Assembly (NCBI GenBank): GCA_052327205.1
Contig: CM126205.1
Coordinates: 322,276,001 to 322,340,000 of the forward strand
Source of the DNA: Somniosus microcephalus
Taxonomy: Eukaryota
Direction of reading: 5' to 3'
Length of the DNA stretch: 64,000 nt
Shown here: positions 331-58,607 of the stretch, in pieces
Layout of the letters: the number at the start of each line of letters is the position of its first letter
Position numbering within the stretch: the stretch's first letter is position 1
Made by a program: the position numbers and the translations under genes
Notes under the pieces: model-generated
The model's database searches: none
What the model saw: the letters and a program-made list of their open reading frames with translations, nothing else
Told to the model about the DNA's origin: nothing

Positions 331-676
331 CCTGAGTGATTTAGGCCTAGAAATTCAGTTGGTTGCGCCAGCCGGTAACGCCATAAGAGGGGTATATTTC
401 CAGCGCTAGGCACTTAGCGCCCGGGCGCAGACCGATCTGCGCCAACGCCCAAATTCAGTTGACATTTAGCGCCGGCGCAAAGTGTTTGCGCCCGCTCAGC
501 TGCACGCGCAGCTTATGACGTCATCTTGTCGTGCAACGCTGTTTGTGCGCCCCAAACCGGAAATTCAGTGGCGCCCGCCCAATGTGGGTGTGGCGCTGCT
601 AAGAACTGTGAAGTGGAACGCAACAGAGGCCCTGTGGGCCTCGGGGAGCGCTAATTAAAGGGCACTTACACTGACC

Positions 677-682
677 TATAAA
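677..682 (+). promoter_or_regulatory. Candidate TATA box of the copy 1 transposase gene
   Basis: TATAAA about 165 bp before the ATG; same motif at the equivalent position in copy 2 (5561-5566). Confidence 0.55.
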
Positions 683-842
683 GCCCAGCCATTTTGTTGT
701 AATGACTTTACTGCTTTGGATTTCTGGACAGAGACCAAGGGACAGAGCTTACTGATTTGGGACAACATAGGAGAGGTATTTTTGGCTTCTGGCCAGTGCT
801 TTGACATTTGATTCATTTGATTTCACTGTTTTCAACTTTATT

Positions 843-1992
843 ATGGGGGCTGTATGGGGGTCCAACCCTCAGTTGCAGCATTATGTGCGAAGGGCTCGCA
901 GACGCTGTGAGAGAGGGCCAGCCATGCCTAGACGCAGAGGGGCCATCAGGCGTCGGCAACGTAGGCCTTACCCACTCAGGCAATACCGGCAGCAGGTGTC
1001 CTATCTCACCATGACTGCGGCGCATTGTGTTAAGAGGCTGCGCTTCAGAAGGGAGGTGGTTGCAGAGATCTGCCAGCTGCTTCAGAGATCTGCGTCCACA
1101 GCTGATGTGCAGGACGTCTCTCTCGGTGGAAGTGAAGGTCATGGTGGCTCTGAACTTTTATGCAAGCGGCTCCTTCAAAGCCGCTGCTGGGGACATAGCG
1201 AACATCTCCCAGTTCGCCGCGCATCGCTGCATCCGGCAGGTCACCAATGCACTTTTCGCGAGGAGACACCAATTCATCTCCTTCCCCATGACCCGACAGA
1301 GGCAGGAGCAGCGTGCAGTCGGATTTGCCAGGATCGCGCGCTTCCCCATGGTGCAGGGCGCCATTGACTGCACGCATGTGGCTATGCGGGCACCTATCCA
1401 CAATGCCGAGGATTACCGCAGCCGGAAGGGCTACCATTCCCTAAATGTACAGCTGGTGTGTGACCACAGGCAGCGCATCCTAGCTGTCAATGCCCGCTTC
1501 CCAGGAAGCAGCCACGATGCATTTATCCTGCGCCAGACTACTGTGGCTGACATGTTCGAGGCACAGCCTCCACCAAGGGGATGGCTTATCGGGGACAAGG
1601 GCTACCCTTTGTGTACATGGCTCATGACCCCGCTCCGCGTGCCCAGGACCCCAGCGGAGGAGGCATACAACGAAAGCCATCAAGCCACAAGGAACATCAT
1701 AGAGCAAACGATAGGCGTCCTCAAGCAACGGTTCCGCTGCCTGGATCGTTCCGGCGGATCTCTACAGTATTCGCCGGATAGAGTCTCCCAGTTCGTCGTC
1801 GTGTGCTGCATGCTGCACAACCTGGCTATCCGCAGGACTCGGGCACTGCCACCTGACATTGCACCACCACCTCAGGAGGATGAGCAGGAGGACCATGAGG
1901 AGGAGGAGGAGGAGGAGGAGGAGTACCAGCCCAGGAGGGAGCCACAAGGTCCAAGGGCCGTCCGCCAGGGGCTTATTGATCGACACTTCTAG
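843..1992 (+). pseudogene. Harbinger DDE transposase (HARBI1-family) with one frameshift
   Basis: N-terminus MGAVWGSNPQLQ.. is in one frame, and the catalytic core (GAIDCTH, GDKGY, RNIIE, CCMLHN) is in ORF 1027-1992; alignment to copy 2 indicates a 2-bp loss near 1085 (cttcagagatctg vs cttcgccgagatctg). Confidence 0.92.
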
Positions 1993-2105
1993 GCCCCCTG
2001 TCAGGGAATGGGCTGTGGCAATGAACGCACCTGAAGGCAGCCGCTCCGCAAGCCCTCAGCCGGTTAACGCAACAACCACTTGAAACCTGAGACGTGGACA
2101 TGCTG

Positions 2106-2125
2106 AATAAATAAAAAGCTTTATT
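2106..2125. terminator. Candidate bidirectional poly(A) signals between the convergent genes of copy 1
   Basis: AATAAA on + (2106-2111) and on - (TTTATT 2120-2125); same arrangement in copy 2. Confidence 0.65.
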
Positions 2126-2402
2126 TCACAAACTCAGGGCCCTTCCCACATGAAACAGAAAAACAGACAAGACCCCCAAAAAACAGTCAAAAACATCTGT
2201 CACTCCCAAAACCTGGGGAGGACTAACAAAACTTGCCCATCCAAATGGCCTTCATCATCGGCCTTACAAAAATAAGCCCCCCCCTCCACAACACAAACAC
2301 CCCCATAAAAACAAAAAATGCCTTGATCCTCGGCCTTACCAAAATAATGCCCCCCCAGAACAGAAGCCCCCCAATATTAAAAAAAACCGCTATCACCACA
2401 CT

Positions 2403-4451
2403 CTAATGGGTGTGCCGAGAGGGTGAGTCCTTAGACAGGCTTCTCTGGCCCCTGCCCGACCTGCTGCTCCGCCTCAACCTGGGCCCTGCGGGTGTGGCAA
2501 GGCTGGGGGAAGACTCATGAGGGCCACAATGCGTGTCGGCAGATGCCCTTGGGGGTCGGCCTAGACGAGGCCCGGCCCGGGAGGGGCCGGCTGCTGACTG
2601 CTGCAGCTGTGGCTGGCCAACATCAGTCTCAGCAGCAGCTCATCGCACCTTGGCTGGGGGAGTGGCAGTGTCGGCTGCACCAATGGGGGCAAGCTGGCTG
2701 ATGGCAGGCGCGTGCTGCTCGCCAGAGACACTGGCACTCGGCCGGGCTGGCAGTGCAGCAAGCGCAGCAATCTGGTGGAGGCCAGACCGCTGTGCTGCAG
2801 CAGGGCGGCGGGTGCCCTGGCGATGCTTCCGCGCCACAGCGAGTGTGGCAGAAGTGAGTGCCCAAACTGCCCTGGTATGTGCCCGCATCAGCTCTGCCAG
2901 TGTCTGGACGGCACCACTCATCTCGCGAGTCACGTCCTGGGCTGCCGCGAGTTGCTGGACACCCCTGTCGTGCGCTGCCACGAGTTGTTCGACCCCCCTG
3001 GCCTGTGATTCCCCGAAAGCGACCACACTATGAGCCAGGGACTCAATGGCCTGAGGCATCTGTTGCACAACCCCCATGAACTCCTGGTGGCGCCGCTCAG
3101 ACGCCGCCGACATCTCATCGAGGAGGCGCACCTCCTGGGCGAGGACCGTCTCCGGACTGGAGGGCGGACTCTCCCTCTGGGGAGAAGGCTGCCGAGCTGG
3201 CCGACCCTTCCCGCGTGCCTCGAGCCCACTGGGCCCAGGATCTGCCCTCCCCTGCAACACCTCCCCCCTCTGGGGAGAAGGCCGGCGTGCTGCCGGACCC
3301 TTCCCGCGTGCCTCGAGCCCACTGGGCCCAGGATCTGCCCTCCCCTGCAACACTTCCCCCTGGCTCTCCTGCAGGCCAGACGTCTCCCCTCCATTGCCAT
3401 CCCCTGGCGCGGATGAGGGTTCCCCCGATGTGCCGCCTTCCTCCTGGTCCTCGTCGTCCTCCTCCTCCAAGGGCCTGGCACTCTGAGCTTCAGGGACCAC
3501 CTCCTCCTCACCAGCTGAAAGCAGGAAGGCACAAGAGTAGCTTTAGAGTGAGGACAGGGCGTCAGCGAGGGAGGCCTGAGTGGTGGCATTATGCGCATTT
3601 GTCGGTCAGTGCGAAAGGATGTAGATCTGAAGCGCAAGGGCAACGACAGAGGTCCAACCGGTCATGTCCTTACCAGGGTCCGCATCTCCGATCGCAACAG
3701 GGCCAGTCACCCGGGCACGCATGAGTCGAGCCATGCTCTCCTCCAGCTCACTGAGCGCCTGGTACTCGGGACGGCCTCCACCGGTGACAGACTGGCTCCT
3801 CAAATTCCGCGCCAGCTTGGCCTGCAAGAGAAAGGACGGCCTCTAAGTACAGTGTGGTGCCCTGTTGCTGTGTGCACTGCCTCCCATGGTCGAATAGCTT
3901 GGCCAGTGTGGTGCCCTGTTGCTGTGTGCACTGCCTCCCATGGTCGAATAGCTTGGCCAGTGTGGTGCCCTGTTGCTGTGTGCACTGCCTCCCATGGTCG
4001 AATAGCTTGGCCAGTGTGGTGCCCTGTTGCTGTGTGCACTGCCTCCCATGGTCAAATAGCTTGGCCAGTGTGTTAAGTGCAGAAAGTGCTATTGATGATC
4101 ATGCCAGTGCCATTGCTGCGGGAGGAGGGCTGCCCATTAGTCCTTTGAGGTCCCTTTGCCCATAATGTGAGGTGCACATGCAAGGATGAGGAGGACACTG
4201 GAAAGGGTACTCACCTTCACCATCCGAGTGAGGTCGTTGTACTTCTTGCGGCATTGGTCCGCACTCCTGGGGACATCGCAGGTGGATGGCACCCTGCGGG
4301 TGATTTTCCTCCAGGCTTTCCTGTACTGGCTCCTGGGAGCCTTCTTGCCACTGTCCGGGCACAAGATCTCTCTTTTGTTTTCGACACCATTAATCAGCAC
4401 CCTCAGAGCATGCTCTGAGAAGCGCTGCGCTCGTTCACGGGCCCTCTCCAT
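2403..4451 (-). pseudogene. Myb/SANT-like (trihelix) DNA-binding gene of Harbinger copy 1, three exons, one premature stop
   Basis: Exons 4451-4215, 3821-3674, 3514-2403 with GT-AG junctions (phase 0, 1) join in frame; RFSE..L..W..I..V..R...QCRKKYNDL domain; in-frame TGA at 2642-2640, after which the frame continues to a C-terminus homologous to copy 2. Confidence 0.88.
3850..4070. repeat. 54-bp minisatellite, 4 copies, in intron 1 of the Myb-like gene
   Basis: Unit cagtgtggtgccctgttgctgtgtgcactgcctcccatggtcgaatagcttggc at 3850, 3904, 3958, 4012. Confidence 0.95.
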
Positions 4452-4900
4452 GGCTCCAGGCGCTATTTTGGCCCACCAGCAGTGTTGAGGCCTAGCTGCA
4501 GGGCTCCAGTATGCAGGGCGTGGCAGCAGTCAAAGTCGACCCTTCCCCCTTTAAGAGCTGGCCGGCGTCAGGGTGTCTGCTGTCAATCAAAACATGACCG
4601 CACCTGCGCTGCGCCCGGCCTCGGCATTATCAGGCCGCATCGCCGGCTTAGCACCTGAAGAGAGCATTGCAACGCCAGTTTCAGCGCTCAGCCAAACTCT
4701 TGGCCAACTCTACTGAATTTCGGTGATGTGGCCTACACTTTCCGGCGGGCGCTAACTTTAGCGAACGCCCGACTTTAGCGCCCCAAAAGTGTCCAGACTG
4801 AATTTCTAGGCCTTAGTGTCGACACTGTTTATAGGTCTCCACTGAGGGAAGATTTACTATTGAAGGATTGTCATATCTTTAGTACTTTATATATATAAAG

Positions 4901-5225: not shown

Positions 5226-5728
5226 ATAGGGCTAGATTTTCAGTTGCTTGCGCCAGCAGTTAGCGCCTTAAGAGAAGTGATTTCCGGGCGCTATGCGTGT
5301 AGCGCCCGGGCGCAGCGCAGTTTGCGCCCCGCCCCAAATTAAGTTGCCCGTTAGCGCCGGCGCAAAGTTTAGCGCCCGCCCGGATGCGCGCGCAGAAAAT
5401 GACGTCACATCCTCGTGCAACGCCCTTTGGCCGCCCCGATTGCAAACTTCAGTCGGACCGCCCCATTGTGCGGCGGGCGGCCGGAGCGTTTGGAAAAAGG
5501 AACGCAACACAACCAGCGCGGGCCCCGGGGGGCGCTAATTAAAGGGACCGTCCTCTCCAGTATAAAGGCCATCCATTATTTCAGAAAACAGTCTTGTGCA
5601 ACGCATTTCTGGAGACACAACAAGGAGGATAGCTAACTGGTTTCAAGCAGCAAGAGCCAGGTATTTTTGGACTCAGGCAACAGCGCTGCAAGTGGCCATT
5701 TGGAAATTAGAGTGTTTGCCAGGATTTG

Positions 5729-6889
5729 ATGGGGGTTGCATGGGGTGCCAACGCGGAGCTGCAGCTCCATGTCCGTAGGGCTCGCAGACGCATTGTGAGA
5801 GGGGCAGCCCTGGCTAGAGGCAGAGGGGGCTACAGGCGTCGGCCACGTAGGCCTTACCCAGTCAGGCTATACCGCCAGCAGCGCTCCTACCTAAACATGA
5901 GTGCCGCGCGATGTGTTAAAAGGCTCCGATTCCGGAAGGGGGTGATTGCAGAGATCTGCCACCTGCTTCGCCGAGATCTGCGGCCAAAGCTCAGGTGCAG
6001 GACGTCTCTGTCGGTGGAAGTGAAGGTGACAGTGGCATTGAACTTCTATGCCACCGGCTCCTTCCAATACGCTGCTGGGGACATAGCAAACATCTCCCAG
6101 TACGGCGCGCATCGCTGCATCCGCCAGGTGACCGAAGCACTGTTCAGAAGGAGAAGCCAATTCATCTCCTTCCCCATGGCCCTGGAGAGCCAGCATCAGT
6201 GCGCATTGGGATTTTCCAGACTCGGGGAATTCCCCTTGGTGCAGGGCGCCATTGACTGTACGCATGTGGCTTTGCGGGCCCCTCTGGAGCATGGCGAGCA
6301 GTATCGCAACAGGAAGGGCTACCATTCTCTGAATGTGCAGCTGGTCTGTGACCACAAGCAGCGCATCATGGCAGTCAATGCCAGCTTCCCAGGCAGCAGC
6401 CACGATGCCTTTATCCTGCGGCAGAGTACTGTGCATAACATGTTCCAGGCACAGCCTCCCCCAAGAGGATGGCTACTCGGGGACAAAGGCTATCCTTTGT
6501 GCACCTGGCTCATGACCCCGCTCCGCGCGCCCAGGACCGCTGCTGAAGAGGCCTACAACGAGAGCCATCAAACCACCCGCAACATCATCGAGCTAACTAT
6601 TGGGGTCCTCAAGCAGCGGTTCCGCTGCCTTGATCGCTCCGGAGGAGCTCTCCAGTATTCGCCGGACCGGGTCTCCCAATTTGTGGTGGTTTGCTGCATG
6701 CTACACAACCTGGCTATCCGCAGGACTCAGGCACTGCCACCTGACGTTGGACCAGCACCTCAGGAGGAGGAGCAGGAGGAGCATGAGGAGGAGGAGGAGG
6801 AGGAGGAGGAGGAGCAGGAGTACGTTCCCAGGAGGGAGCGACCAGGGCCAAGGGCCGCACGACGCCACCTTATTACACGGTACTTCTAA
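5729..6889 (+). CDS. Harbinger DDE transposase, 386 aa, intact
   Basis: Single ORF from ATG 5729; HTH-like N-terminal half, GAIDCTHV, YRNRKGYHSLNVQ, FPGSSHDAFIL, GDKGY, RNIIE..IGVLKQRFRCL, CCMLHN; acidic tail. Confidence 0.95.
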   Translation: MGVAWGANAELQLHVRRARRRIVRGAALARGRGGYRRRPRRPYPVRLYRQQRSYLNMSAARCVKRLRFRKGVIAEICHLLRRDLRPKLRCRTSLSVEVKVTVALNFYATGSFQYAAGDIANISQYGAHRCIRQVTEALFRRRSQFISFPMALESQHQCALGFSRLGEFPLVQGAIDCTHVALRAPLEHGEQYRNRKGYHSLNVQLVCDHKQRIMAVNASFPGSSHDAFILRQSTVHNMFQAQPPPRGWLLGDKGYPLCTWLMTPLRAPRTAAEEAYNESHQTTRNIIELTIGVLKQRFRCLDRSGGALQYSPDRVSQFVVVCCMLHNLAIRRTQALPPDVGPAPQEEEQEEHEEEEEEEEEEQEYVPRRERPGPRAARRHLITRYF

Positions 6890-7004
6890 GCCCCCTGTCA
6901 GGGAATGGCCAGGGGCCATGAGGGAAGATGAATGCAGCCGCTCCGCAAGCCCTCAGCCGGCGAAGCCAACAAACACTAAGAAGAACAACCATGGAGACTG
7001 CATG

Positions 7005-7024
7005 AATAAAGATAATTTTTTATT
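7005..7024. terminator. Candidate bidirectional poly(A) signals of Harbinger copy 2
   Basis: AATAAA 7005-7010 (+) and TTTATT 7019-7024 (-). Confidence 0.65.
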
Positions 7025-7252
7025 AAACAAAAATGAAAAGCCCTTCCCACATGAATCCCCAAAAACAATAAACGGGCCCCACAAAAAGCCCAACAAACGA
7101 CTCACTCCCACAAACTGGGGAGGAGCCACTCCACCTTTATTGAAACCGGGCCTCAACGTCGGCCTAACGCAAAAAAAAAGCCCTCCAAAAGCACAACCAT
7201 GGGCAAAATAAAGATGGCCACCGCCATATTAAAGGAAAGCTGGCCACACCCT

Positions 7253-9193
7253 CTACTGAGTGGCCCGCGAGGGCGAGACCTTGGCCAGCATTTTGCCTCC
7301 CCTGCCCTGCCTGCTGCTCCTTCGCAAGCTCTGCCCAGTGGCTGCTGCGAGGCTGGGGGAAGGCGCCTGAGGCTCAGATGCCCTTCCGCCAGATGCCGCT
7401 GGGGGGCGGCCTACACGGCGTTTGGGCCTCGAGGGGCCGTCTCCTGAGTGGCGCACCTGAGCCTGGCCACCATCAGCTGCAGCCGCTTGCCCTTGACGGC
7501 CCAGAGGGGGAATGGCGGCGACGGATGGCGCAATGTGGGCCAGCAGGCGTCTGGGATGCGCTGGCTGGTGCTGTGGCGCGGTGGCACTCGGCCGGGCCCG
7601 CACTGCAGGATCCGCAGCAATCAGCCGACGGCCGGCTTGCTGGGATGGTCCAGCGCGGCGCCTGCCCTGGCGATGCCTGCCTGAGACAGCGCGTGTGGCA
7701 GCAGTGAGTGGCCCTGTGGTCCTGGTGTGCGCGCGCATCACATCCGCCAGGGTCTTGACGGCATCAGTTAGCATGCGGCCAGTCGCGGCAGTTGCTGCCC
7801 CGAACTCGCGCACACTGGTCGCCAGCGACTCGATGGCCTCAGGCATGCGCCCCACCACGCTCATGAGCTCCGTGTGGCGCCGGTCCGAGTCGTCGGCCAT
7901 CTGATCGAGCTTCCGCACCTCCTCCGAAGTGAAGGTGTCCGGACTGGAGTCGCGACTCTCCCGCTGGGGAGGAGGGGGCCGAACTAGGGGACCCTTGCCG
8001 CGTTGGTGACGGCGAGTGTGCCGAGCAGCAGCACTCCCCTCTGATCCTTCCCCCCTTTGGGGGGAAGGCCGCGGGCCACGCGCACGGCTGCTGGGTGGCT
8101 GGACGCCACTGGTCCCAGAAGCTGCATTGCCCTGCGACAGTTCCTCCAGGCACTCGTCCAGTGAGGAGGTGTCGAGCATTTCCTCCTCTCCTGCGGGACG
8201 TGACTGTTCCCCCGAAGGTCCGGCTTGCTCCTCCTCCTCCTCCTGGTTGGAGGTGCTGTCACTGGCAGCCTCAGGGTCCTGGTCGTCACCAGCTGAAAGC
8301 AGGAATGCACAAGAGTAGCTTCAGAGTGAGGAGACGGCGTCAGCGAGGGAGTTAGGACTGGTGGGATTCAGCGCATTGTTGGGACAGTGGCAAAGGAGGT
8401 AGCTCGGATGGGCCAGTGCGACGCGAGAGGGCCAAAAGGCGAGGTCCTTACCATTGCCGGGCAGTGGAGGGTCGGATACACCGCACGCTGTGGGGACAAT
8501 CACACGTGCTCCCATGAGCACACACACGCGCTCCTCCAGCTGAGTGAGCTTCTGCAGCTTGGCGCGGCCACCCCTGGCACGGGCCTGGCGATTAAACGCT
8601 ACTTTAGCCTGCAAGAGAAAGGACGGGCTGTAAGTGCGCAGTGAAGCCCTGATGTAGTGTGCACTGCCTCCCATGGTGGAATAGCTTGGACAGAGTGAAG
8701 CTCTGATGTACTGTCCACTGCCTCCCATGGTGGAATAGCTTGGACAGAGTGAAGCCCTGATGTACTGTCCACTGCCTCCCATGGTGGAATAGCTTGGCCA
8801 AAGTGTAGAGTGCCGAATGGCCATTTGATGCTCATGACTGTCCCAATGCTGCTGGCTGAGGGCTGGCCAAAAGGACTTTCAGGTCCCTTTGCCCATCATG
8901 TCAGGTGTACATGCAAGAATGAGGAGGAGACTGGAAAGGCTACTCACCCTCACAATCCTGGTCAGATCGTTGTATTTCTTACGGCATTGTGTGTGGGTCC
9001 TGGGGGCCTCGCCGGTGAACGTCACCCTCTGGGCGATCTGCTTCCAGGCTTTGGTGTAGTCGTGGTGGGTTGGATTCCTCCCACTGTCTGGAAACAAGAT
9101 CTTGCGCCTCACCTCCAGAGCTGTGACCATGATGTCCAGATCACCCTCTGAGAAGCGCAGGGCACGCTGACGGGCCTTCTCTGGCGTTGCCAT
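7253..9193 (-). CDS. Myb/SANT-like DNA-binding protein of Harbinger copy 2, three exons, about 480 aa, intact
   Basis: Exons 9193-8948, 8608-8452, 8292-7253; donors gtgagt/gtaagg, acceptors cttgcag/tttcag, same positions and phases as copy 1; no stop in the joined frame. Confidence 0.88.
8641..8802. repeat. 54-bp minisatellite, 3 copies, in intron 1 of the copy 2 Myb-like gene
   Basis: Units at 8641, 8695, 8749 with core cactgcctcccatggtggaatagcttgg. Confidence 0.93.
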
Positions 9194-10110
9194 GACTCCC
9201 TGGGGCTGAGCAGTAGTGTTGAGGCCTCTTTGCAAGGCTGCAGTGTGCAGGGCGTGGCAGCAGACCAATTCGTCCCTTCCCCCTTTAAGAGCTGGTCGGC
9301 ACCACGGGGTCTGCTGTCAGTGCAAAAATGACCGCACCCGTGCTGCGCCCCGCCTGGGCGCTATCCCTCTGGACCGCCGGCTTAGCGCCTAAAGAGAGTA
9401 GTGGAACGCCTCTTTTAGCGCTCCACCAACCTCTTAGGGCGAAGCCACTGAATTCCCGGCAACGGGGCGCTACTTTGGGGCGGGCGCTAACTTCGGGCGG
9501 GCGCTAAGGTTAGCGCCCCAAAACTGCCTATACTGAAAATCTAGCCCATAGTGCTAAACGACAGAATTTTAACATTAAGATTAAGGCTTTTAAATTTTTC
9601 TGAATATTCTTTCTTTTTTAAATATATGACTGTGATGCGAAGGGGCCAGTCTGAGAGGGTCAGAGTATGGAAACTGGTAATGTTTTGGAATTTCTTAAAC
9701 GGCTCAGTAAAAATTTAATGGCACTTGCTGTGTGGTAGTTACACTGAATGTTCAAGGAGGCTGGGGGTACTGTTGGCCTGTTAGTACTGAATGGTAGCTT
9801 TGCCTGTTCGGTGCTTAGCGAATCATCTCGAATAGTCTTCTATTTACCTCCAAGGTCGCTAGCCCGTTGATGTATCTCCACATGTTTACGTGGGTTAGCA
9901 AATTGTCTCACTGTTTTACTCCTCCTCCCCTCCCCGCCTCCCCCTCCCCTGCCTTCTGTATGCAGTGACTACTGATTAATGCATCTGTACTTCTCAGTTC
10001 GTGCCCGGTGTCACTTTCAGCTACGTGGCCATTCTTCGCATGTGGAACTGGCCGGTTAGTGAGCTAGTGAGGGACAAAATAAGCCAAGATTCCCACTCCC
10101 TTTCCTTATC

Positions 10111-14414: not shown

Positions 14415-15237
14415 GGGCTGGATTTTCATTGAGGAGGCGTGTAGGAGGCGGGACTGCAACTTTCAGGGTTGTAGTCCTGCCTCCATCGAGTTGTAGCCAA
14501 CCCACGCGATTTTCACTTGATTGACCTTGTTGAGCCCGCCCAGCGGGCTCAGCAGGCCAATTAAGGGCCACCCAGCAACAGGTGACGTCACAGATTGACG
14601 TTTCATCTGTCAAAAGCTTTTGACAGATGAAATATCAGCGTTTGAGAGCTGCTTGAAGCTGTCAAACACTGATAATCTGTACTCCAAGTTAATTCCTTCC
14701 TCTCAGGCTGATTTAGAGATCTCTCCAGAACAGAAAGCTGAATGCTGCAATCGCAGCCATTCTGCTTTCTGTGCCGGTGAGATGAGGGACTCCCGAGACC
14801 TGAAGGAAGGAAGGCTGTAAAGGTAAGTAAATATAAGTACAACTTCTTTAAACACTTTACACACACCAAACATACTTACCTCTGCACTCATGCACCCATC
14901 ACTCACCTGAACACCGGACATCTCGAACCCTCCAAGTCCTTCAGCCCGACGGCCCGCCTCGCTAACTTGGCGTGGTTTGGATCCGTCGGGCAGCCCACAC
15001 TTCAAGAATAAAAATAGGGATTAGGCTAAAAACTGCCTGTTAACAGGCAGTTAATTGGCACTGGTCCCCTTCCCGCCTCGGGGAGGCGGCTCCCAGCACA
15101 GGTCAGGTATCCGCCTCCTTTGAAACTGGCATGGAGGCGGGTTGGGGGCGGGATGGGTTCGTGCCCCCCGATTTTGAGATTTTAACCCCCCCACACGCCT
15201 CCAATCCCGCCTCCACGGCCCAATGAAAATCCTGCCC
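14415..15237 (+). mobile_element. Non-autonomous Harbinger-type element, 823 bp
   Basis: TIR GGGC(T/A)GGATTTTCATTG resembling the copy 2 TIR; 3-bp TSD TGG (14412-14414 / 15238-15240); interrupts LINE ORF2 cleanly. Confidence 0.9.
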
Positions 15238-15940
15238 TGGGTATTATGTGGCGAGTGTTTCACCTCCTGACTCCCCAAAGCCTTTCCACCATCTACAAGG
15301 CACAACTTAGGTGTGTGATAGAATACTCTCCACTTGCTTGGATGAGTGCAGCTCCAACAACACTCAAGAAGTTCGACACCATATAGGACGAAGCAGCCCG
15401 CTTGATTGGCACCCCATCCACCACCTTAAACATTCACTCCCTCCACCACCAGCGCACCGTGGCTGTAGTGTGTGCCATCTACAAGATGCACTGCAGCAAA
15501 TCGCCAAGGCTTCTTCAGCAGCACCACCCAAACCTGCCTCTACCACCTAGAAGGACAAGGGCAGCAGGTGCATGGGAACACTATCACCTCCAAGTTCTCC
15601 TCCAAGTCACACACCATCCTGACTTGGAAATATATCTGGTGTTAAATCCGTGAATTTTGATGTATGGTGTCCTTCAATAAATCGACAGAGACTGCAGAGG
15701 AACAATCAACAGGTGTTTACTGGATGAGGGTTACTCTAAAAACTAAAGTACAGATCCCTACTCAAGGTTTATATACAGGTGTGGTCACTGCCGGTACTAC
15801 AGTATACAGGAGTTGTAAAAAGTAGTTCTCCCCTTAAAGGTACATACACTACAATTCCTCCCCTTTTAGATTAACAGTACCATAATATTCATTTAACAAT
15901 TAACACTTTTAACATGCAACATTAACTGCAAATAGTCCAT

Positions 15941-18856
15941 TTATAAATTCAGTCTTTGGGGCGGCTTCCTGATCCTTTCTGGATAGCGCCTTTCCTGAGT
16001 GTCTTGCTCTTGGTGCGGAGGCGATTCTGGCCCCCTGTCGTCGGTTGGTTCATCAGATTCCGATGCTACTGTTTCTGGGGTAGATGCTACCTGTATGTCG
16101 GGTTCATCACCAGGTACGCGAGACCTGGGGTTGCCTCGTTCCTGTGACTCTAGGATCTGGTCAGCATGGCGTCTCACAATGTTCTCCCCAACGTCCACTG
16201 TGTACATTAGTGGCCACTGCCGTGTGCATATCGTTCCTGGCTGCCATTTCTCTGTTCGGTAGTCGCGGGCCAAGACTGGTTGCTCTACATTGAAGCTCTT
16301 TGTCGGCTTCTCATTGATGTGCTGGAATTGCTTATTCTCAACATTTCTTCGTACATTTGGTCTGAGCAAATTCAGACGAGATCTCAACCTTCGGTTAAAG
16401 AACATCATGGCCGGGGTCTGGTTGGTAACTGCATGTGTCGCATTTCTGTAGGCTAACAGGACATTGTCCACCTTATGCTGCAGTAGAATGTCGTCATCGC
16501 ACATGGCCCTTACTGCCTTTTTAAAGGTTTGTACGAACCTCTCAGCCAATCCATTTGTGGCTGGATGATATGGGGCGGATGTGTAATGCCTTACCTCATT
16601 CCTTCTCATAAATTTCCGAAACTCTTCGGACACAAACTGTGGTCCACTATCAGAGCAAATCTGCTCTGGCAAGCTGTTCCTGGCAAATATGGTCCGTAGG
16701 ACTGCAATTGTTTTCTCCGTGGTGGTGGAGGACATTTTGATCACCTCAGGCCATTTCGAGTGCGCATCCACGGCTATTAAGAACATTGAGTCCATGAATG
16801 GACCAGCAAAATCAATGTGCACCCTTAGCCATGGAGAGGAGGGCCACTCCCATGGGTGTAGAGGGGCATGTGGTGGTGCATTTTGGACCTTCTGGCATCC
16901 TGAGCAGTTCTTTGTCAGGTCCTCGATTTGCTGATCGATCCCGGGCCATCACACATAAGCCCTAGCAAGGCTTTTCATTTTCACCCCTCCCAGATGGCCT
17001 TCGTGAAGCTCATTGAGCACTCTCTCCCTTAACTTGGGTGGAATTACCACTCGGGATCCACACATCAAGGTCCCCTGGCATACTGACAGCTGTTCTCTTC
17101 TGGATGAGAATGCTGGCAACAATGAGTCGCCATGTGTTGGCCATCCCTTCACCGTCAAATCATATACCCGAGACAGTGTCGGGTCATTTCGGGTCTCCTC
17201 TATATCCGCGTTAGTTACTGGCAAGCGTTCAATTATAGTCGAATAAAATATTTCGACAGGGTCCACTGCTGGTGCTTCCTCCGCAGTAGGCAGTGGCAGG
17301 CGTGATAGCCCATCAGTGTTTCCATGCTGTTTCGTGCCCTTATACTCTATTTCATATTGGTTCGCCCGTAGAAAAAGGGACCATCTTTGTAGCCATTGCG
17401 CAGTCATCACCGGAACGCCCTTCTTTGGATTAAAGATGGAGACAAGTGGTTGGTGGTCAGTCAGCAAGGTGAACTTCTGCCCGTGCAGATAGTGGTTGAA
17501 CATTTTTACTCCCCACACTAGGCTGAGGGCCTCCCTGTCAATCTGGGCGTAGTTACGCTCGGCTGAGGTTAGTGACCGAGACGCAAAGGCTACTGGCCAA
17601 GCCATCCGGGAATTTGTGTGACAGCACCGCCCCAATACCATAGGGTGATGCATCACACGCCAACCGAATTGGTAGTGCTGGGTTGAAATGAGCCAACACC
17701 TCTTTTGATGTGATCAATTCTTTGCACTTCTGGAAAGCTCGTTTACATTCGTAATTCCACTTCCATGGTACCCCCGTTTGCAGTAGGGTGTTCAGTGGGT
17801 GTAGTACTGTAGAGAAATTCGGCAAGAACTTATGGTAGTAGTTCACCAGCCCGAGGAACGACATCAGTTGTGACACATTTTCCGGTACTGGAGCCTTGAC
17901 TACTGCCTCAATCTTTTCAGGCGACTTATGTAACCCCTCTTCATCAATAACATGGCCACAATACGAGATCTGCTTCTGGAAACACTCGCATTTGTGGCGA
18001 TTAGCTCGGAGCCCATATTCCTTCAATCTAGTGAGCACCTGCTCCAGGTTGGCGAGGTGATCACTGTCATTTTCGCCCGTGACCAGGATGTCGTCCAAAT
18101 AACACTGGGTCCCTGGAATCCCTTGCAGGACTTGATCCATTGCCCTTTGCCAAATAGCCGGAGCTGATGCTACCCTGAACACCAGCCGGTTGTATTGGTA
18201 GAGACCTTTGTGAGTGTTGATCGTGAGGTACTGTTTCGAGGCTTCTTCTACCTCCATTTGCAGGTACGCCTGGGCCAGATCAATCTTAGTGAAGCGTTTT
18301 CCTCCAGATAGCGAGGCGAAAATATCTTCAATCCGCGGAAGCGGATATTGTACCGTGTGAAGGACTGGGTTCACTGTCACCTTAAAGTCCCCACAGATGC
18401 GAACCTTCTTTGGTTCCCCAGGCGTATTACTCAACGACCTCTTCATTATAGGAACGATGGGTGTAGCCCACTCGTTCCAGTCCACTTTGGACAGTACTCC
18501 TGAACGTTCCAACTCTTCCAGCTCTGCTTCGACGGCTGGGCGGATCGCATAAGGTACCGGTCTGGCCATAAAAAACTTTGGGCTTGCATTTTCCTCTATT
18601 TTTTGATCGTCGCTGTTATGCCTTTTAGTGTTCCGAGTCCCTCCTGGAACACTTCTTGTGCATCAGTTAGCGTTTTTGACAGTCGTCCAGGTGTGACGTC
18701 GTCATCCTTTTTGGCATCTACCGTCAGTGCTTGTATGGAATGCCAATCTAACTGTATCTTCCGGATCCATTCACGTCCTAGTAGTGGTGGTCCTCCATCT
18801 GGCAATACATATAGGTCCATTTTTGGTGTTTCCTTGCCGTGGTATATCACGTGCAC
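15941..18856 (-). pseudogene. Gypsy pol (RT, RNase H, integrase) in four broken ORFs
   Basis: RICGDFK, YPLPRIED, YLDD, CDASPYGIGAVL, HEGHLG..C..C, HIDFAGP, SDSGPQF, HPATNGLAERFVQTFK; frameshifts and a TGA at 16949-16951. Confidence 0.93.
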
Positions 18857-18858
18857 CC

Positions 18859-19854
18859 TTATTTTTCCTTTGGGTAGACTTTTTGCCCCGTGTACGTCTT
18901 CAAGACAATCTCTGTATCTCTCAAGGGTATATGTGAGAATAGCCGCTTGTAGTCCCTTCGGTTTATGACTGTTAGGGCTGATCCTGTGTCCAATTCCATT
19001 TTCACTTGGACTCCGTCTATCTTGAGCGTGACCCAGTTAGTTTGGTGATCCTCCATTTTGATTACATTATGTAGTTTCAGACAACCCAGCTCCTTGCTTC
19101 CGGAGTCTGTATCACTTTTCTGTTCGTCTGAACTACTCTCCGTCACCTTATGTACCTTTTTGCACATCTCCTGTGGAGATTTCTTGCTGCTGGTTTTCTT
19201 TCCCGACCTACAGACACTTGCTATGTGTCCTACTTTTCCACACTGTCTGCACACTTGGTCCTTGAACCAACAATCCTTCTGGTCGTGTGTTGTTCTGCCG
19301 CAGCGATAACACTTCACTGCTCCATATGACATTTTATTTGTGCCATATTCTTGCGGTCTCCGTTGTATCTCTGCAGCGCCCCGTGCGGCTGCTTCGTGTG
19401 ATACTGCCATGCTGAAAGCCTTGTCCAGCGTAAGATCCTTTTCTGATAGAAGCCGTTTCTGGGTTCCTTCACTTTGAAGCCCACACACAAACTTGTCCCT
19501 TAACGTATCTGCTAGTCCTGTTCCAAACTGGCAGTGTTTCGATAGCTTGCGCAGTTCCGTTAAATACTCAGCATTACTTTCGTCTTTATGCTGGTTCCTT
19601 TTGTGGAACTTAAATCTTTCTGCTATCAGCAGCGGTGTGGTGTTTAAGTGGTCCTGTAGGATTGCCGCTATGCTTTCAAAATCCTTTTCCACTGGCTTCT
19701 CTGGGGTTACTCGGTTTCGCAGTAAGCCGTACGTTTTTGCACCCATGGAATTCAACAATACCAGTGCTTTCCTGGCATCTGGCACTTCATTCGCCTTGCA
19801 GTACACTTCTATGCGTTCTATATATGTCGCCCAATCTTCGACTTCATTCGGCAT
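18859..19854 (-). pseudogene. Gypsy gag and start of protease
   Basis: Two CCHC knuckles (CYRCGRTTHDQKDC, CRQCGKVGHIASVC) and LDTGS protease motif; frame breaks before RT. Confidence 0.9.
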
Positions 19855-21289
19855 CCCTGGGTGTGGTTAGACTGGCTAAAAATGGCGTCTCCCGTGCTCT
19901 CCCTTCTTCTCCGCTGGCTCAAAATGGCGTCTCCCGCGCTACCTTTCTTCCCCCGCGGACGCTGCTCAGCCCTTGAACACCGGCCGCGCTCTGCGCGTTT
20001 TCCTGCGCGCCTCTATCGTTGACGCCGCTCTGTCTTCAACCCCGGCTGCGCCCTGTGCGCTTTACCCTCTCTCTTACCCCGTCGACGCTGCTCGGCCTTT
20101 TTCTGTGCCGTCGGTCGGCTCCAGCCGCCGCCGTCCGGGAAGGGTCTGCGCCGTACCTGCTGCCAGCCCGCTGCGCTGGATCGTCGCGACTGGAGAACCA
20201 AGCCCAGCTGTCCACAGCCTCCTCTACGATGTTCAAGTCCTCTCCGGATGGTCGACGCCCGCACTGGTGGAATCGGCCTTCTTCAGCAGAGTTGCAGGTA
20301 GGTTTGAATCGACTCGTCGCCAATGTTAAATCCGTGAATTTTGATGTATGGTGTCCTTCAATAAATCGACAGAGACTGCAGAGGAACAATCAACAGGTGT
20401 TTACTGGATGAGGGTTACTCTAAAAACTCAAGTACAGATCCCTACTCAAGGTTTATATACAGGTGTGGTCACTGCCGGTGCTACAGTATACAGGAGCTGT
20501 AAAAAGTAGTTCTCCCCTTAAAGGTACATACACTACATCTGTGTTCCTTCATCGTCGCTGGGTCAAAATCCTGGAACTCCCTCCCTAACAGCACTGTGGG
20601 AGCACCTTCACCACACGGACTGCTGCGGTTCAAGATGGCAGCTCACCACCACCTTCTCAAGGGCAACTAGGGATGGGCAATAAATGCCGGCCTTGTCAGT
20701 GATGCCCACATCCCAGGAATTAATTTTTTTAAAATCTCAGGTCATCCTATTGGAAAGGGATGGGTTGTTGATCCTAAATATTCCTGTGTTTGGAAAACAA
20801 GGGATGCCTCCCATTGTATTGTGCCTCATTTCCTCTCCAACATCTCAAAATGCTTCTCGCACAATGAATTACGTTGAAGAGCAGTGACTGTTGTTCGGTT
20901 GGCAAACCTGTCAGCTATTAGGCACACGGCAAGATCCCACAAACAGCAATGAGATGATGAACGCAGCGAGTGGTGAGGACCTGGAACTCGCTGCCGACAG
21001 AAGTGGTGGAAGCGGAGACACTCAATGTTTTCAAGGGGAGACTGGACAGGCACTTGAGGGAAATAAACTTGCAGGGCTACGGGGATAGAGCGGGGGAATG
21101 GGACTGGCTGGATTGCTCTACAGAGAGCCGGCATGGACTCGATGGGCCGAATGGCCTCCTTCTGTGCCGTTATGACTCTATGAATGACTGGTTAATCTGT
21201 TATTGTTGACGTCAGTTGAGGGAGGAATATTGGCCAGGACAGCTGGAGAACTCCCTTCTCTTCTTGGTATAGTGTTGTCTTTAACGTAG

Positions 21290-22620: not shown

Positions 22621-23033
22621 GGGAAAAAAAATTACAAAATTCTGAAAATTTGCGTCCGTTTTAGTTCAAGCACGTGGCGCCAGCGAGGGTGCTGACATTT
22701 GAATGGGCTGTTGTATGACATTACCTCTGGATGTAACCCCCGCCACCCCTTGTGAGCCGCACGTCCTTCTGTTCAAGTGGCGAGCTCGGATTCTTCTACT
22801 ATTTAAATAAGACCAAAAGAAAATGTCTTCTCTTTTGTGCTTTTAGATAAGCACTTGAAACGCCATAGCATACAAGGCTACGGACCAAGTGCTGGAAAAT
22901 GGGATTAGAATAGACAGGGCTTGATGGCCGGCGTGGACACGATGGGCCGAAGGGCCTCTTTCTGTGCTGTATAACTATGATGACTCTATTGTCCTCACTT
23001 CCTGTGAATCTGCTAACTCTTGTTGAGATCCAT

Positions 23034-23840
23034 TTCCACAGGCGCTAACTCTAGTTGGGGTACCGTTCCACAGGCGCTAACTCTAGTTGGGGTACAGTTC
23101 CACAGGCGCTAACTCTAGTTGGGGTACAGTTCCACAGGCGCTAACTCTAGTTGGGGTACAGTTCCACAGTCGCTAAATCTTGTTGGGGTACAGTTCCACA
23201 GTCGTTAACTCTAGTTGGGGTACAGTTCCACAGTCACTAAATCTTGTTGGGGTACAGTTCCACAGTCGCTAACTCTAGTTGGGGTACAGTTTCACAGTCG
23301 TTAACTCTAGTTGGGGTATAGTTCCACAGTCGCGAACTCTAGTTGGGGTGCAGTTCCACAGTCGCTAACTCTAGTTGGGGTGCAGTTCCACAGTCGCTAA
23401 CTCTAGTTGGGGTACAGTTCCACAGTCGTTAACTCTAGTTGGGGTACAGTTCCACAGTCGCGAACTCTAGTTGGGGTACAGTTCCACAGTCGCGAACTCT
23501 AGTTGGGGTACAGTTCCACAGTCGCTAACTCTAGTTGGGGTACAGTTCCATAGGCACTAACTCTAGTTGGGGTATAGTTCCACAGTCGCTAACTCTAGTT
23601 GGGGTACAGTTCCACAGTCGCTAACTCTAGTTGGGGTACAGTTCCACAGTCGCTAACTCTAGTTGGGGTACAGTTCCACAGTCGTTAACTCTAGTTGGGG
23701 TATAGTTCCACAGTCGCGAACTCTAGTTGGGGTACAGTTCCACAGTCGCGAACTCTAGTTGGGGTACAGTTCCACAGGCGCTAACTCTAGTTGGGGTACA
23801 GTTCCACAGTCGCTAAACTGTTGTTGGGGTACAGTGCCAC
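23034..23840. repeat. 32-bp minisatellite, about 25 copies
   Basis: Unit ttccacagtcgctaactctagttggggtacag, head-to-tail. Confidence 0.97.
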
Positions 23841-24669
23841 AAATGCTGACTCTCTGCCTCCACTCTCCATCCCGTTCCCGGTTCAGACAGGCCGGATTTG
23901 TTTGTGTTGGGAAGGTGGCTGGCGGAGGTGGGGGTGGGGGGGTGGGGGGGAGATGTGGCTGAGGGGTGAGGGGAGGCTGGTGCCAAGAGGTTGAGCTTCA
24001 CTTCATTCAGTTGCTAAGCACGCCATGCAGTGTGGTAACCCAGCCGTGCAGGAAGGTCCCAGATTGGATCCCAGGCCTGAGTTAGCTCACCTCGCTCAGA
24101 GGGGAGAGGGGAAGGGAGCGGGGGTGAGGGGGGAGTATGGGGGCGGGCAATTTTCCTCCGCGTTCCTTCACCTTAGTTACTTTTGCCACAGCTTTCACGA
24201 TTAACTTGCCCAGATCCTGAGAGCTCGGAGTAGTATTTACACGATGAAATAATAAACGGATAACATTTCTGGCGAGGTAAAGAGAGAGTTTCTAAGCAGA
24301 AAGGTTTCAATTACATGTGTGGCCTGCAGCGACCTTGTGGGTGATTGATTCAAGGACCAGCTGGCTGCTCGGAGGCCACATTAAGAACAGTTCATGTAGC
24401 ACATCCTGCTCATTCCCCCTGTCCAACTGATTGTTCTCGCTGATTGCCCATCTTATTTGTTTTGCCCATTGAAACATCGTTGTGATTGGGGAGAGGAAAA
24501 AAAATGCTAAATCACTGACCTGACTTAACTTCTTACTCTCCGAGTCGACACTAGGGTAACATTCAAACACAAGCACTCAGTTGCCGCAGAGTCCACTAAA
24601 TAAGACCTTTACTTACATATGTCCTCCTGGTTCTTATCAAAATGAGGAGTTTAAAAATAAATTAAGGTC

Positions 24670-25305
24670 AGGTTGCCAACTCTGGTTGGACGTGTTCCTT
24701 GAGGTCTCATCACGTGACCCTTTCAGCTCCAGCCAACTGCCCCAGTCAAACAACTTTGTGTTCCTCCCAATCTCCGACATTTTTATAACTAATAAACAAA
24801 ACCGTTCAAAGAAATGAAAAAGGTGCATTTGTAGGAATGTCTAGTTCCTATCAAGAGACTGAGGTCGACTCAGGCAATCAAACAAACGATGTTTAATGTA
24901 AAACTAATTGAGTTTAACAAACAGTTGCAAGAGAACTACGAATACAGGTCTAGTCAGTTCGGAGGCTCCATGAGGACTGCTTGGGCGGTCCCGTGGCTGG
25001 CGTCATGACGTCATCACGTTTTTCCCGCCGGTGGGGGATCACGTAATGAACGGCGTGACGTCATCGCGTTTGCCTGCGCTCTTAAAGGGACCGCGCTCTG
25101 TACATGCAAACAGTATATACAAAGATACAGACTCAGGCTGTAGCTAACATATTGTTAAAGGGAATTATATACATTTGATCGGAGTCCCTTAGTGGCTCTG
25201 CCACACATTTTTTTTAAAATCCCACTATGATTTTACTCCCGGGTTTTTGCTGGCAGCCGTGTCCAGGAGATTAATCTTTCATTCCTGGCGACTCCAGGCT
25301 AATCG
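24670..25305. mobile_element. hAT-like non-autonomous element (10807 family) containing a solo LTR
   Basis: ggttgccaactctggttggacg.. and ccaggagattaatctt..ctccagg homologous to 10807-11047. Confidence 0.6.
24830..25205 (-). mobile_element. Solo LTR, 376 bp
   Basis: TGT..ACA ends; 4-bp TSD CATT (24826-24829 / 25206-25209); orientation inferred from ATTAAA on the - strand. Confidence 0.8.
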
Positions 25306-29637: not shown

Positions 29638-30456
29638 GGGCTGGATTTTGATACTGGAGGCGTGTAGGAGGCGCGACTACAACTTTTGGGGTTGTAGTCC
29701 CGCCTCCATCGAGTTGTGGCCAACCCACGTGATTTTCACTTGATTGACCTTGTTGACCCCGCCCAGCGGGTTCAGCAGGCCAATTAAGGGCCACCCGGCA
29801 ACAGGTGACGTCACAGATTGACATTTCATCTGTCAAGAGCTTTTGACAGATGAAATATCAACGTTTGACAGCTCTTTGAAGCTGTCAAACACTGACAATC
29901 TGTACTCCAAGTTAATTCCTTCCTCTCAGGATGATTTAGAGACCTCTCCAGAACAGAAAGCTGAATGCTGCAACTTTTGACAGCTCGCGGCCATTCTGCT
30001 TTCTGTGCCGGTGAGATGAGGGACTCCCGAGACCTGAAGGAAGGAAGGCTGTAAAGGTAAGTAAAACTTCTTTAAACACTTTACACACACCAAACACACT
30101 TACCTTTGCACTCATGCACCCATCACTCACCTGAACACCGGACATCTCGAACCCTCCAAGCCCTTCAGCCCGACGGCCCGCCTCGCTAACTTGGCGTGGT
30201 TTGGAGCCGTCGGGAATCCCAGACTTCAGAAATAAAAATAGTGATTAGGCTAAAAACTGCCTGTTAACTACCTGTTAACAGGCAGTTAATTGGCACTAAT
30301 CCCCTTCCCGCCTCAGGGAGGCGGGTCCCAGCACAGGTCAGGTATCCGCCTCCTGGCATGGGGGCGGGATGGGTTCGTGCCCCCCCCCCGATTTCGAGAT
30401 TTTAACCCCCCACACGCCTCCAATCCCGCCTCCACGGCCCAATGAAAATCCTGCCC
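29638..30456 (+). mobile_element. Second copy of the 823-bp non-autonomous Harbinger-type element
   Basis: Colinear and highly similar to 14415-15237; ends GGGCTGGATTTT / AAAATCCTGCCC; no clean TSD. Confidence 0.9.
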
Positions 30457-31224: not shown

Positions 31225-31907
31225 AAGACTTACATTTATATAGCGCCTTTCCCGACCACCGGACGTCCCGAAGCGCTTTACAGCCAATGAGGTACTTTTG
31301 AAGTGCAGTCACTGTTGTAATGTGGTGAAGCACGGTAGCTAATTTGCGCACAGCAAGCTCCCACAAACAGCAATGTGATAATGACCAGATAATCTGTTTT
31401 AGTGATTGACATGAATCAGTCATTCATGAAAGAAAGACTTATGAAATAATACTGAGTGGCCTACGGGTGGCACTGTCCAGGGAGAGTATAAATACTCGGG
31501 CACGGGCCCAGCTTGCGCAGGACATTCTTAACAGGAACTAGTGAAGGACACAACTAGACCTCCATGTTGTAAAACAGTTGATTAACGCTTAGACCAAGTG
31601 CCTAGTAGTTTTCTTACGTCAGTGATGTTGATTGAGGGATAAATATTGGCCTGGACACCGGGGATAACTCCCCCCTGCTCTTCTTCGAAATAGCGCCTTG
31701 GAATCTTTTACGTCCACCTGAGAGAGCGGACAGGGGCCTCTGTTTAACGTCTTATCTGAGAGACGGCACCTTCCGACAGTGTAGTGCTCCCTCAGCACTG
31801 CACTGGGAGTGTCAGCCTAGCTTTATGCGCTCACAAGTCCCTGGAGTGGGATTTGAACCCACAACTTTCTGACTCGGAGGCGAGTGTGCTACTCACTGAG
31901 CCACAGC
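31225..31907 (-). mobile_element. Deu-SINE interrupted by a solo LTR
   Basis: Reverse complement of the 26071 family, split at 31406/31622. Confidence 0.85.
31407..31621 (+). mobile_element. Solo LTR
   Basis: TG..CA ends; 5-bp TSD GTGAT; internal TATAAATA. Confidence 0.85.
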
Positions 31908-32183
31908 TAATAAAGTGTTGAGATTTGAACCTTGAGACTGGTCTAGTTGGGTCATCCATCCCATATTTGGCGTTCGTTCACTCTTGCAAAGGATGGAACT
32001 GCATCTACGTTGGTGGAACTATGGGGGGGGTGCGCGAAACATGGGCCCCCGATATTTGCGGGGGAGCGCGGGGCCAACCCGGCATGTCGGGGGACAGTGA
32101 GGCCCTGCCCCATCTGAACGGCAGGGCCTTATTATCTTTTTGTAAGAGCTGCCTCCCGCCCGACTACCCTGCCAAATGGACAG

Positions 32184-42135: not shown

Positions 42136-42136
42136 T

Positions 42137-57953: not shown

Positions 57954-58607
57954 GGGGGAAAAATTCGGTTGATTTGCATCTCCCATTAGCGCCTTAACGG
58001 GGCACAAAGCAACTAGCGCCCGGGCACGGCGCCACTAACGCCGCCCGTGAAATTCAGCGGGAGGTTAGCGGTGGCGGTAACCGTTAGCGCCCTGTGGCAC
58101 TGTGCCTCCGGCGATGACGTCATCGCCTGCGCAGCGCCCCGCTCGCGCCCCGGCCACGATCTTCGGTAGCGTCCCCTGACTTACCACCGGGCGCTATGTC
58201 CGACAGGGTTAGGGGGACCTACCTGCGGCCGGGGCGGCGCAAGTTAAAGGGGAGGTGCCAGGCAGCCATTTTTGTTGCTGGCCGCCTGCCAGGACCTGCC
58301 CCCTTTGCCGTCCCCGGCCTTCTGTGAAGCCCCCCCCCCCCTGCGGAGTGCCGGCTGTGCTCCGTGAACCCGCCACTTCTCTTGAGTGCCGGGCTCTTTT
58401 GCTGGCACTCCGATCCCTGGTGGCCCAGCTGGGCCCCTCCCCTTTCATAAGGGGAGGAAGGCCTGCAGTACCGCGTAGCGCTCCGCCTCCCTCTTGGGAC
58501 GCTACCAGTGAATTTCAGGCGCGGGGGCGCTAACTTTATCGGGGCACTAAAAGTAGCGCCCCGGCGAATTTAGCGCCCCAAAGTGGGCTCGACCCAATTT
58601 TGCCCCC
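57954..58607 (+). mobile_element. Non-autonomous Harbinger relative of copies 1 and 2, 654 bp
   Basis: Imperfect 16-bp TIR GGGGG(A/C)AAAATT(C/G)GGT; subterminal TTAGCGCC/GGCGCTAA arrays arranged as in the autonomous copies; TSD ambiguous. Confidence 0.82.

Follow-up and report, generated by a model that had tools for sequence, protein, structure and literature searches.

A PIF/Harbinger transposon whose two genes have open reading frames, beside a broken sister element, in DNA of an elasmobranch

In a 64-kb stretch of DNA from Somniosus microcephalus (contig CM126205.1, positions 322,276,001 to 322,340,000; this whole stretch is called the window below, and positions are counted from its first base) lies a two-gene transposon of the PIF/Harbinger type, 4319 bp in length, at 5229-9547. 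We take it to be a recently inserted, structurally complete and autonomous PIF/Harbinger element whose host is a shark or ray and whose family has moved in the recent past, and we put the probability of this reading at roughly 0.8. The evidence consists of open reading frames (ORFs) for a DDE transposase and for a spliced Myb-like protein, of terminal inverted repeats (TIRs) with a target-site duplication (TSD) outside them, and of comparisons with a sister element that lies 416 bp upstream in the same orientation and has both of its genes broken. A first-pass annotation, made by a model from the letters and a list of ORFs, had proposed a two-gene Harbinger of a vertebrate at this place, with perfect TIRs and TSD, candidate TATA and poly(A) signals, an open 386-aa DDE transposase and a spliced Myb-like ORF of about 480 aa; each of these proposals is borne out below, and the protein matches and the tree place the element among sharks and rays.

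Layout of the element and its sister

The two TIRs are complementary at 16/16 bases and begin with GGG, and the ATA duplication is bordered by GAT on the left and GTG on the right (Table 1). When the whole window was scanned under strict terms (11-nt inverted arms that start with GG, flanked by an identical 3-bp duplication), the sister at 344-4812, which the first-pass annotation had not listed, was the sole element recovered besides this one. The two elements are 76.6% identical over 4215 aligned bases, and their TIRs have 13/16 bases in common. The sister carries one lesion per gene, a frameshift near 1083-1086 in the transposase and a stop at 2640-2642 in the Myb-like gene; it nevertheless retains both introns (the second likewise of 159 nt) and the positions of the TATA box (677) and of the poly(A) signals. 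Between the two elements the ratio of nonsynonymous to synonymous divergence (dN/dS), taken over 278 codons of the transposase core, is 0.24, which shows purifying selection on that core; for the Myb-like gene it is 0.51 in exon 1, 0.60 in exon 2 and 0.83-0.88 in low-complexity parts of exon 3. Since introns and splice sites are kept in the sister and dN/dS is low, the comparison supports the splice and gene model. The minisatellite in intron 1 of the sister, 4.1 copies of 54 bp with 99% matches, is more uniform than the array in the intact element.

Table 1. Features of the 5229-9547 element and of related elements in the window
Feature	Positions	Strand	Remarks
Sister element, 4469 bp, TSD TTA, perfect 16-bp TIRs, same gene layout	344..4812	+	Window self-comparison
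Left TSD ATA, GAT ahead	5226..5228		Sequence comparison
Left TIR, 16 bp	5229..5244	+	16/16 complementary to right TIR
Left subterminal region: 6 TAGCGCC (both orientations), TGACGTCA octamer at 5400, CpG observed/expected (o/e) 1.2	5245..5560
Candidate TATA box of transposase gene, TATAAA, 168 nt upstream of ATG	5561..5566	+	Counterpart in sister at 677
Transposase ORF, 386 aa, D176/D252/E288, acidic tail	5729..6889	+	PF13359, E 2.5e-39
Overlapping candidate poly(A) signals of the convergent genes	7005..7024		AATAAA 7005 (+), 7019-7024 (-); 14-nt offset equal in sister
Myb-like exon 3, ending in the stop; encodes an acidic stretch, a helical segment and a basic C-terminal motif	7253..8292	-
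Intron 2, 159 nt, GT-AG	8293..8451	-	Length and splice sites identical in sister
Myb-like exon 2, 157 nt; linker 2 residues below commonest spacing, without TGGG	8452..8608	-
Intron 1, 339 nt, GT-AG; holds 54-bp minisatellite, 3.1 copies	8609..8947	-	Related 54-bp array in sister intron 1
Myb-like exon 1, 82 aa, Myb/SANT trihelix	8948..9193	-	PF13873, E 2.4e-11
Right subterminal region: 6 TAGCGCC; inward-facing TTAAAGGG at 9281-9288 (candidate TATA-like site)	9194..9531
Right TIR, 16 bp	9532..9547	-
Right TSD ATA, then GTG	9548..9550
Non-autonomous Harbinger-type element, different family, 823 bp, TSD TGG, CGCCTCC subterminal motif	14415..15237	+
Second copy of the 14415 family, 819 bp, TSD mismatched TAC/CAT	29638..30456	+
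Non-autonomous relative, 653 bp, TSD CTT, degenerate TIRs, 7 TAGCGCC	57954..58606	+	Local alignment

The transposase

The match of the 386-aa plus-strand product to Pfam DDE_Tnp_4 lies over the curated cut-off, and the catalytic triad is present. The protein was compared with 120 database homologues (the best 120 of 203 at E 1e-30), which were selected by their likeness to this very transposase and so are biased in its favour: it agrees with them at 85/86 columns that are at least 80% conserved (the sister at 81), is tied for the fewest departures among 85 well-covered rows, and is changed at none of the 31 columns that are at least 90% conserved. By pairwise alignment, all three catalytic residues are kept in 60 of the 120 homologues, are not all kept in 50 and fall in a gap in 10, which we read as a sign that most of the database relatives have decayed or changed. 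The best matches are from sharks and rays, with Pristiophorus japonicus at the top (66% identity), and in a tree of 33 rows, made up of the two window transposases and 31 of the 120 matches hand-picked for taxon spread, the two window transposases are sisters within an elasmobranch clade (support 96/93). Some elasmobranch homologues in this comparison (P0005, P0011, P0014, P0016 and P0018; P0006 and P0007; P0013 and P0019) form cross-species clades with short end branches; these proteins, labelled HARBI1, all lack at least one catalytic residue and are possibly further domesticated Harbinger genes of sharks and rays.

The predicted model of the transposase (pLDDT 87, pTM 0.83) has D176 within a strand, D252 just past a strand and E288 in a helix, a layout that matches the superfamily description in PMC4482050 (papers cited by PMC number are drawn on in part throughout). 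Searched by sequence against the PDB, the transposase gave only weak matches, driven by its acidic tail, and no relative of solved structure; a Foldseek search with the model gave 0 matches at E 0.001, the top five rows being TnsB transposases and retroviral integrases.

The Myb-like gene

Splicing of the minus-strand exons 9193-8948, 8608-8452 and 8292-7253 at exactly the junctions proposed in the first-pass annotation (8948/8608 and 8452/8292) yields a product of 480 aa with a single terminal stop. Exon 1 matches Myb_DNA-bind_5 (PF13873) over the cut-off, and exons 2 and 3 have no Pfam match. Homologues were gathered with a HMMER profile built from the two exon-1 sequences, which gave 230 matches at E 0.001, of which the best 150 were taken; in a word-index search with exon 1 for longer proteins, 0/38 candidates passed. 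Among those 150, P0133 of Pristiophorus japonicus has an alignment that covers residues 14-468 of the 480-aa product at 27.7% identity (E 8e-24), exon 2 alone aligns to it at 47% identity over 51 aa (E 2e-8), and a basic motif near the C-terminus is common to the two proteins. As the alignment runs across all three exons, both splice junctions and the reading frame of exon 3 gain support from it.

Further searches brought less. An ESM Atlas search with exon 3 had its top match (0.90) in an unnamed chordate cluster and Myb/SANT clusters at 0.76-0.77, with recognition under the tool's mark, and serves as a lead only; a PDB search with the Myb profile gave nothing under E 0.28; and a prediction of the complex of transposase residues 45-340 with exon 2 residues 1-45, run without alignments, scored 0.02.

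Subterminal motifs and non-autonomous elements

Besides the two full-length elements, the window holds three shorter Harbinger-type elements. The copies at 14415-15237 and 29638-30456 differ by 39 substitutions in 793 aligned bases (4.9%). The first-pass annotation had noticed that their TIRs are similar to those of 5229-9547, which is correct (the left TIRs match at 14/16 and 12/16 bases), and had named them as its likely substrates. The likeness is confined to the TIRs: their ends align with those of 5229-9547 at the level of shuffled sequence (z -0.6 to 1.9), and TAGCGCC, which occurs 12 times in 5229-9547, occurs 0 times in either of the two, each of which carries CGCCTCC 7 times instead. 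In zebrafish the Myb-like protein recognises a subterminal motif (PMC9710019), and since TAGCGCC is not in these copies they probably belong to another autonomous family; as substrates of 5229-9547 they are unlikely.

A closer relative is the element at 57954-58606, which was found through TAGCGCC and overlooked by a relaxed TIR scan. Both of its ends align to the ends of 5229-9547 (z 21 and 12, 100 shuffles). Its left TIR matches at 10/16 bases, its limits are less certain, and its CpG o/e is 0.85; judged from these ends, it is a relative that is not clearly a usable substrate. It has both ends and TAGCGCC in common with the two full-length elements, and TAGCGCC, by analogy with the zebrafish system, is a candidate binding site of the Myb-like protein.

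A second motif, the octamer TGACGTCA, recurs in each of the five Harbinger-type elements (at 516, 5400, 14583, 29806 and 58115), always 161-172 nt in from the left end, a spacing that is held even in the 14415/29638 family, which otherwise cannot be aligned. It occurs 8 times in the window, 5 of them at these element ends, as against 0.65 expected. We take the octamer for a CRE/ATF site, possibly one that drives the promoter of the transposase gene. Two further copies, together with two of TTAAAGGG, lie within 24850-25200, where the relaxed TIR scan gave no pair and which may be a solo long terminal repeat (LTR).

Target-site flanks

The bases next to the duplications follow the form GAY-NNN-GTR, a pattern that rests on five sites. 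GAT stands ahead of both full-length elements and GTG behind them, and the central three bases vary (TTA, ATA, TGG, TAC/CAT, CTT). At the six TSD-adjacent positions of four elements, 21/24 bases match the target of the zebrafish element Harbinger3_DR as quoted in PMC3016246. With the better of two orientations taken for the elements and for the controls alike, 0/2,000,000 random quadruples of window sites did as well. When 12 flanking bases are scored, the matches to that target number 7, 9, 9, 9 and 8 in the five insertions, 9 being the value for 5229-9547; the chances per site of 9, 8 and 7 matches in 12 are 0.001, 0.005 and 0.025. Extended targets, of 15 bp in vertebrates, are already described for the superfamily (PMC2836001). 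On this comparison zebrafish and elasmobranch families seem to have their target flanks in common, and this is the one point not met within the parts of the published accounts covered here.

Classification and known systems

The structural traits of a two-ORF element of the PHIS superfamily are all found at 5229-9547: TIRs, a 3-bp TSD, the DDE_Tnp_4 triad, a Myb/SANT ORF and extended target flanks. The GGG start of the TIRs, the Myb/SANT second ORF and the length (about 4.5 kb in NuwaI, 4319 bp here) are those of NuwaI, and in PMC4482050 the NuwaI and PIF/Harbinger groups resemble this element in the GGG start, in a length of about 4.1-4.5 kb and in two ORFs with Myb/SANT. The TSD of the sister, TTA, fits the TWA of PIF/Harbinger, and a single insertion cannot give the TSD consensus of a family. 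Since the ATA of 5229-9547 fits neither TWA nor the CWG of NuwaI, we leave its subgroup unassigned. In the same source, 11 NuwaI and 88 PIF/Harbinger families of eukaryotes are termed potentially active on the strength of two intact ORFs, and of the 16 NuwaI hosts named in the part covered none is a cartilaginous fish.

The best-studied vertebrate system, Harbinger3_DR, is like this element in its DDE transposase and Myb-like gene, short TIRs, subterminal repeats and 3-bp TSD within an extended target; it differs in its TSD (CWG, as against ATA here) and in being a reconstructed consensus that has been studied experimentally, whereas 5229-9547 is one natural copy known from its sequence. For Harbinger3_DR and mPing, transposition needs both proteins, the Myb-like one of which binds to the transposase as well as to subterminal DNA (PMC9710019, PMC2836001). 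Closer in kind is Harbinger-Snek of sea kraits, a natural two-gene vertebrate Harbinger with intact copies and non-autonomous derivatives that is proposed to be possibly still transposing (PMC8437027); 269 intact copies are reported in Laticauda colubrina, and 1 in L. laticaudata, where RNA-seq reads cover both genes. It is unlike 5229-9547 in having been acquired by horizontal transfer; the nearest relatives of 5229-9547 are all elasmobranch proteins. The rarity that the first-pass annotation implied is overstated in view of these intact and transcribed vertebrate copies already in print. Harbinger expression is likewise reported for four ray-finned fish (PMC9179366) and a newt (PMC5741667).

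For cartilaginous fish, a 2022 survey, in the part covered, records the elephant shark as being without Harbinger and suggests other cartilaginous fish for checking (PMC9179366), and Harbinger repeats are listed at class level for the whale shark and the grey reef shark (PMC8455134, PMC12498223). Open-literature titles, a scope outside which most subscription papers and supplements fall, include no full-length elasmobranch Harbinger family and no cell assay of an unreconstructed vertebrate element. What 5229-9547 adds is thus a full description, not a first record from this group. Its closest listed relatives are elasmobranch proteins named "putative nuclease HARBI1" (at most 66% identity, same clade), which are annotated as host genes, with no element context; one of them, P0001 of Pristiophorus japonicus (UniRef UPI00398E69EC), has R at the third catalytic position. 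The domesticated genes HARBI1, NAIF1 and MSANTD belong to the same two protein families (PMC9710019, PMC9392472); they are fixed genes of jawed vertebrates, unlike 5229-9547 with its TIRs, TSD and mobile relatives.

Age

How young the copy is can be bounded from its open frames. A simple Poisson model, applied to the 2598 stop-free coding nucleotides, limits neutral decay to at most 3.6% (95%, stops only); when frameshifts are added, at a rate assumed from the two miniature inverted-repeat (MITE) copies at 14415 and 29638, the bound falls to about 0.55% (95%). The copy is young, as the lack of stops and frameshifts indicates, and young is not the same as active. Other supposed signs of youth discriminate poorly. 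The 19 matched pairs of the perfect ends and TSD bound divergence only at 7.3%. CpG o/e is 0.67 in the element, 0.52 in the rest of the window and 0.59 in the broken sister, so that the abundance of CpG reported in the first-pass annotation is real relative to its surroundings; it is also unremarkable, being equalled in 31/251 overlapping windows of the same length outside the element. In the comparison with the sister there is no excess of CpG-specific decay (21 versus 43 at CpG, 25 versus 44 at GpC controls). We therefore infer neither youth from CpG richness nor activity from the perfect TIRs and TSD.

Competing explanations

If the element works as its zebrafish counterpart does, two inward-facing promoters would transcribe its convergent genes, with transcripts ending at the overlapping poly(A) signals; the spliced Myb-like protein would, as in Harbinger3_DR, bind a subterminal motif (here the candidate TAGCGCC) and the transposase and carry the latter into the nucleus; and the transposase would cut at the 16-bp TIRs. 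The duplication and the flanks are there to be seen, and insertion into an extended GAY-NNN-GTR target would account for them. Several observations weigh against a complete and recently mobile element. Self-comparison of the 64-kb window found no near-identical copy of 5229-9547; the ends of the dead sister, which has its own TSD, are just as perfect, and such ends are for that reason no sign of activity; the ATA duplication (TAT on the other strand) lies outside the published TWA and CWG groups (PMC4482050). The Myb-like linker after the trihelix has 29 residues, without TGGG, a length found in 4/46 measurable matches (116 of the 150 could be anchored) as against 31 residues in 23/46, and among 16 hand-chosen rows the gap is seen only in this element. 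At nine transposase positions the residue is neither that of the sister nor the majority residue of the top 30 homologues; four of these nine residues occur in none of the 30, and one, R158C, is a change of the CpG-decay type. The claim of the first-pass annotation that the element is intact and potentially active thus stands as to open frames and youth and loses its support from TIRs and TSD.

These observations bear mostly on what a structurally complete copy can still do. That the copy is crippled in spite of its open frames, by private changes (the short linker, R158C, G167E, R219S, Q289L) or by silencing, comes somewhat short of an even chance in our estimate: the residues named are rare (C158 in 6/118, E167 in 1/115 and L289 in 3/115 homologues, S219 in 0/30 of the top ones) and L289 adjoins the catalytic E288, while the sister too departs from the consensus at 167, so that some of these changes may be family traits, a few matches have the same short linker, no column of the most conserved class is changed, and decay specific to CpG is not in excess. 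That the copy is fully competent, with its family transposing now in the germ line of the host and its native proteins working as they stand in cultured cells, we consider unlikely. Frames, triad, splice sites, TATA box and poly(A) signals are all kept, the transposase has fewer derived changes than that of the sister (9 versus 14), and several related insertions lie within 64 kb; set against this are the lack of an identical copy or an empty site in the window, the two-residue gap at a conserved linker, the 4.9% between the two MITE copies and the loss of at least one catalytic residue in 50 of the 120 homologues. A competent copy of a family that has gone quiet takes up part of the remaining probability.

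Two readings would do away with a mobile element or with its independence from the sister, and both are remote. That the two genes are a domesticated host pair of the HARBI1 and NAIF1 kind is suggested by the database label of the homologues and by the cross-species clades with short branches that some elasmobranch homologues form. The marks of domestication (loss of TIRs and TSD, a single orthologous locus) are not found here, however: the element has perfect TIRs and a TSD, carries subterminal repeats and has a non-autonomous relative in the window, its nearest relative is the adjacent broken sister, which has its own TSD, and the best database match reaches only 66%; this reading is the least probable of all. 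Tandem duplication of a single insertion, barely better placed, would explain why 344-4812 and 5229-9547 share an orientation, are separated by so short a gap and are each other's closest relatives, but their TSDs and TIRs differ and the similarity ends at the element boundaries. The 23% divergence between them, together with low dN/dS in the transposase core, argues instead that the two were working elements and evolved apart for a long time. Our preferred reading remains that of a recently inserted, structurally complete autonomous element, and by its sequence the copy is a reasonable candidate for activity tests.

Other repeats in the window

At 15640-20537 lies a Gypsy-type LTR retrotransposon on the minus strand, with 214-bp LTRs that are 98.6% identical and gag-pol in several separate frames (with matches to protease, reverse transcriptase (RT), RNase H and integrase). 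An older repeat, the two halves of which match 35948-36488, is interrupted by this retrotransposon. An open LINE frame of 835 aa with endonuclease and RT matches occupies 33285-35792, and many kindred 3' fragments are spread across the window. Long minisatellites stand at 23012-23841, 41045-44874 and 51740-53722 (units of 32, 56 and 19 bp), and the apparent 700-aa ORFs near 52 kb are artefactual, produced by the 19-bp array. The inverted arms 31407-31624 and 32181-32412 (84.5%) of the stretch at 31505-32313 are probably two copies of a short repeat face to face. Open frames at 62439-62834 and 38893-39441 resemble the ends of other retroelements and have no Pfam match at E 0.001; we presume them to be GIY-YIG-like and RTE-like, respectively.

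Implications

The furthest-reaching possibility is that this is a live elasmobranch Harbinger whose native protein pair works unaltered in vertebrate cells on a target of about 15 bp, with a flank code kept from zebrafish to shark, a center that varies, and a subterminal cargo motif particular to each family. We hold this to be a long shot, less probable even than full competence of the copy. If true, it would provide a natural, sequence-selective, two-part integration system, with matched pairs in one genome from which to learn which protein picks the target. As no solved structure turned up as a relative by sequence and no fold match was obtained at E 0.001, the natural protein pair would also be a structural target if it proved well-behaved. 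If the native proteins work, an unreconstructed vertebrate Harbinger would be available for the bench, and a 2024 Cell survey of 130 transposons may already hold such tests. With shared flanks and family-specific motifs, the questions of which protein picks the long target and of how a family recognises its own cargo would become testable.

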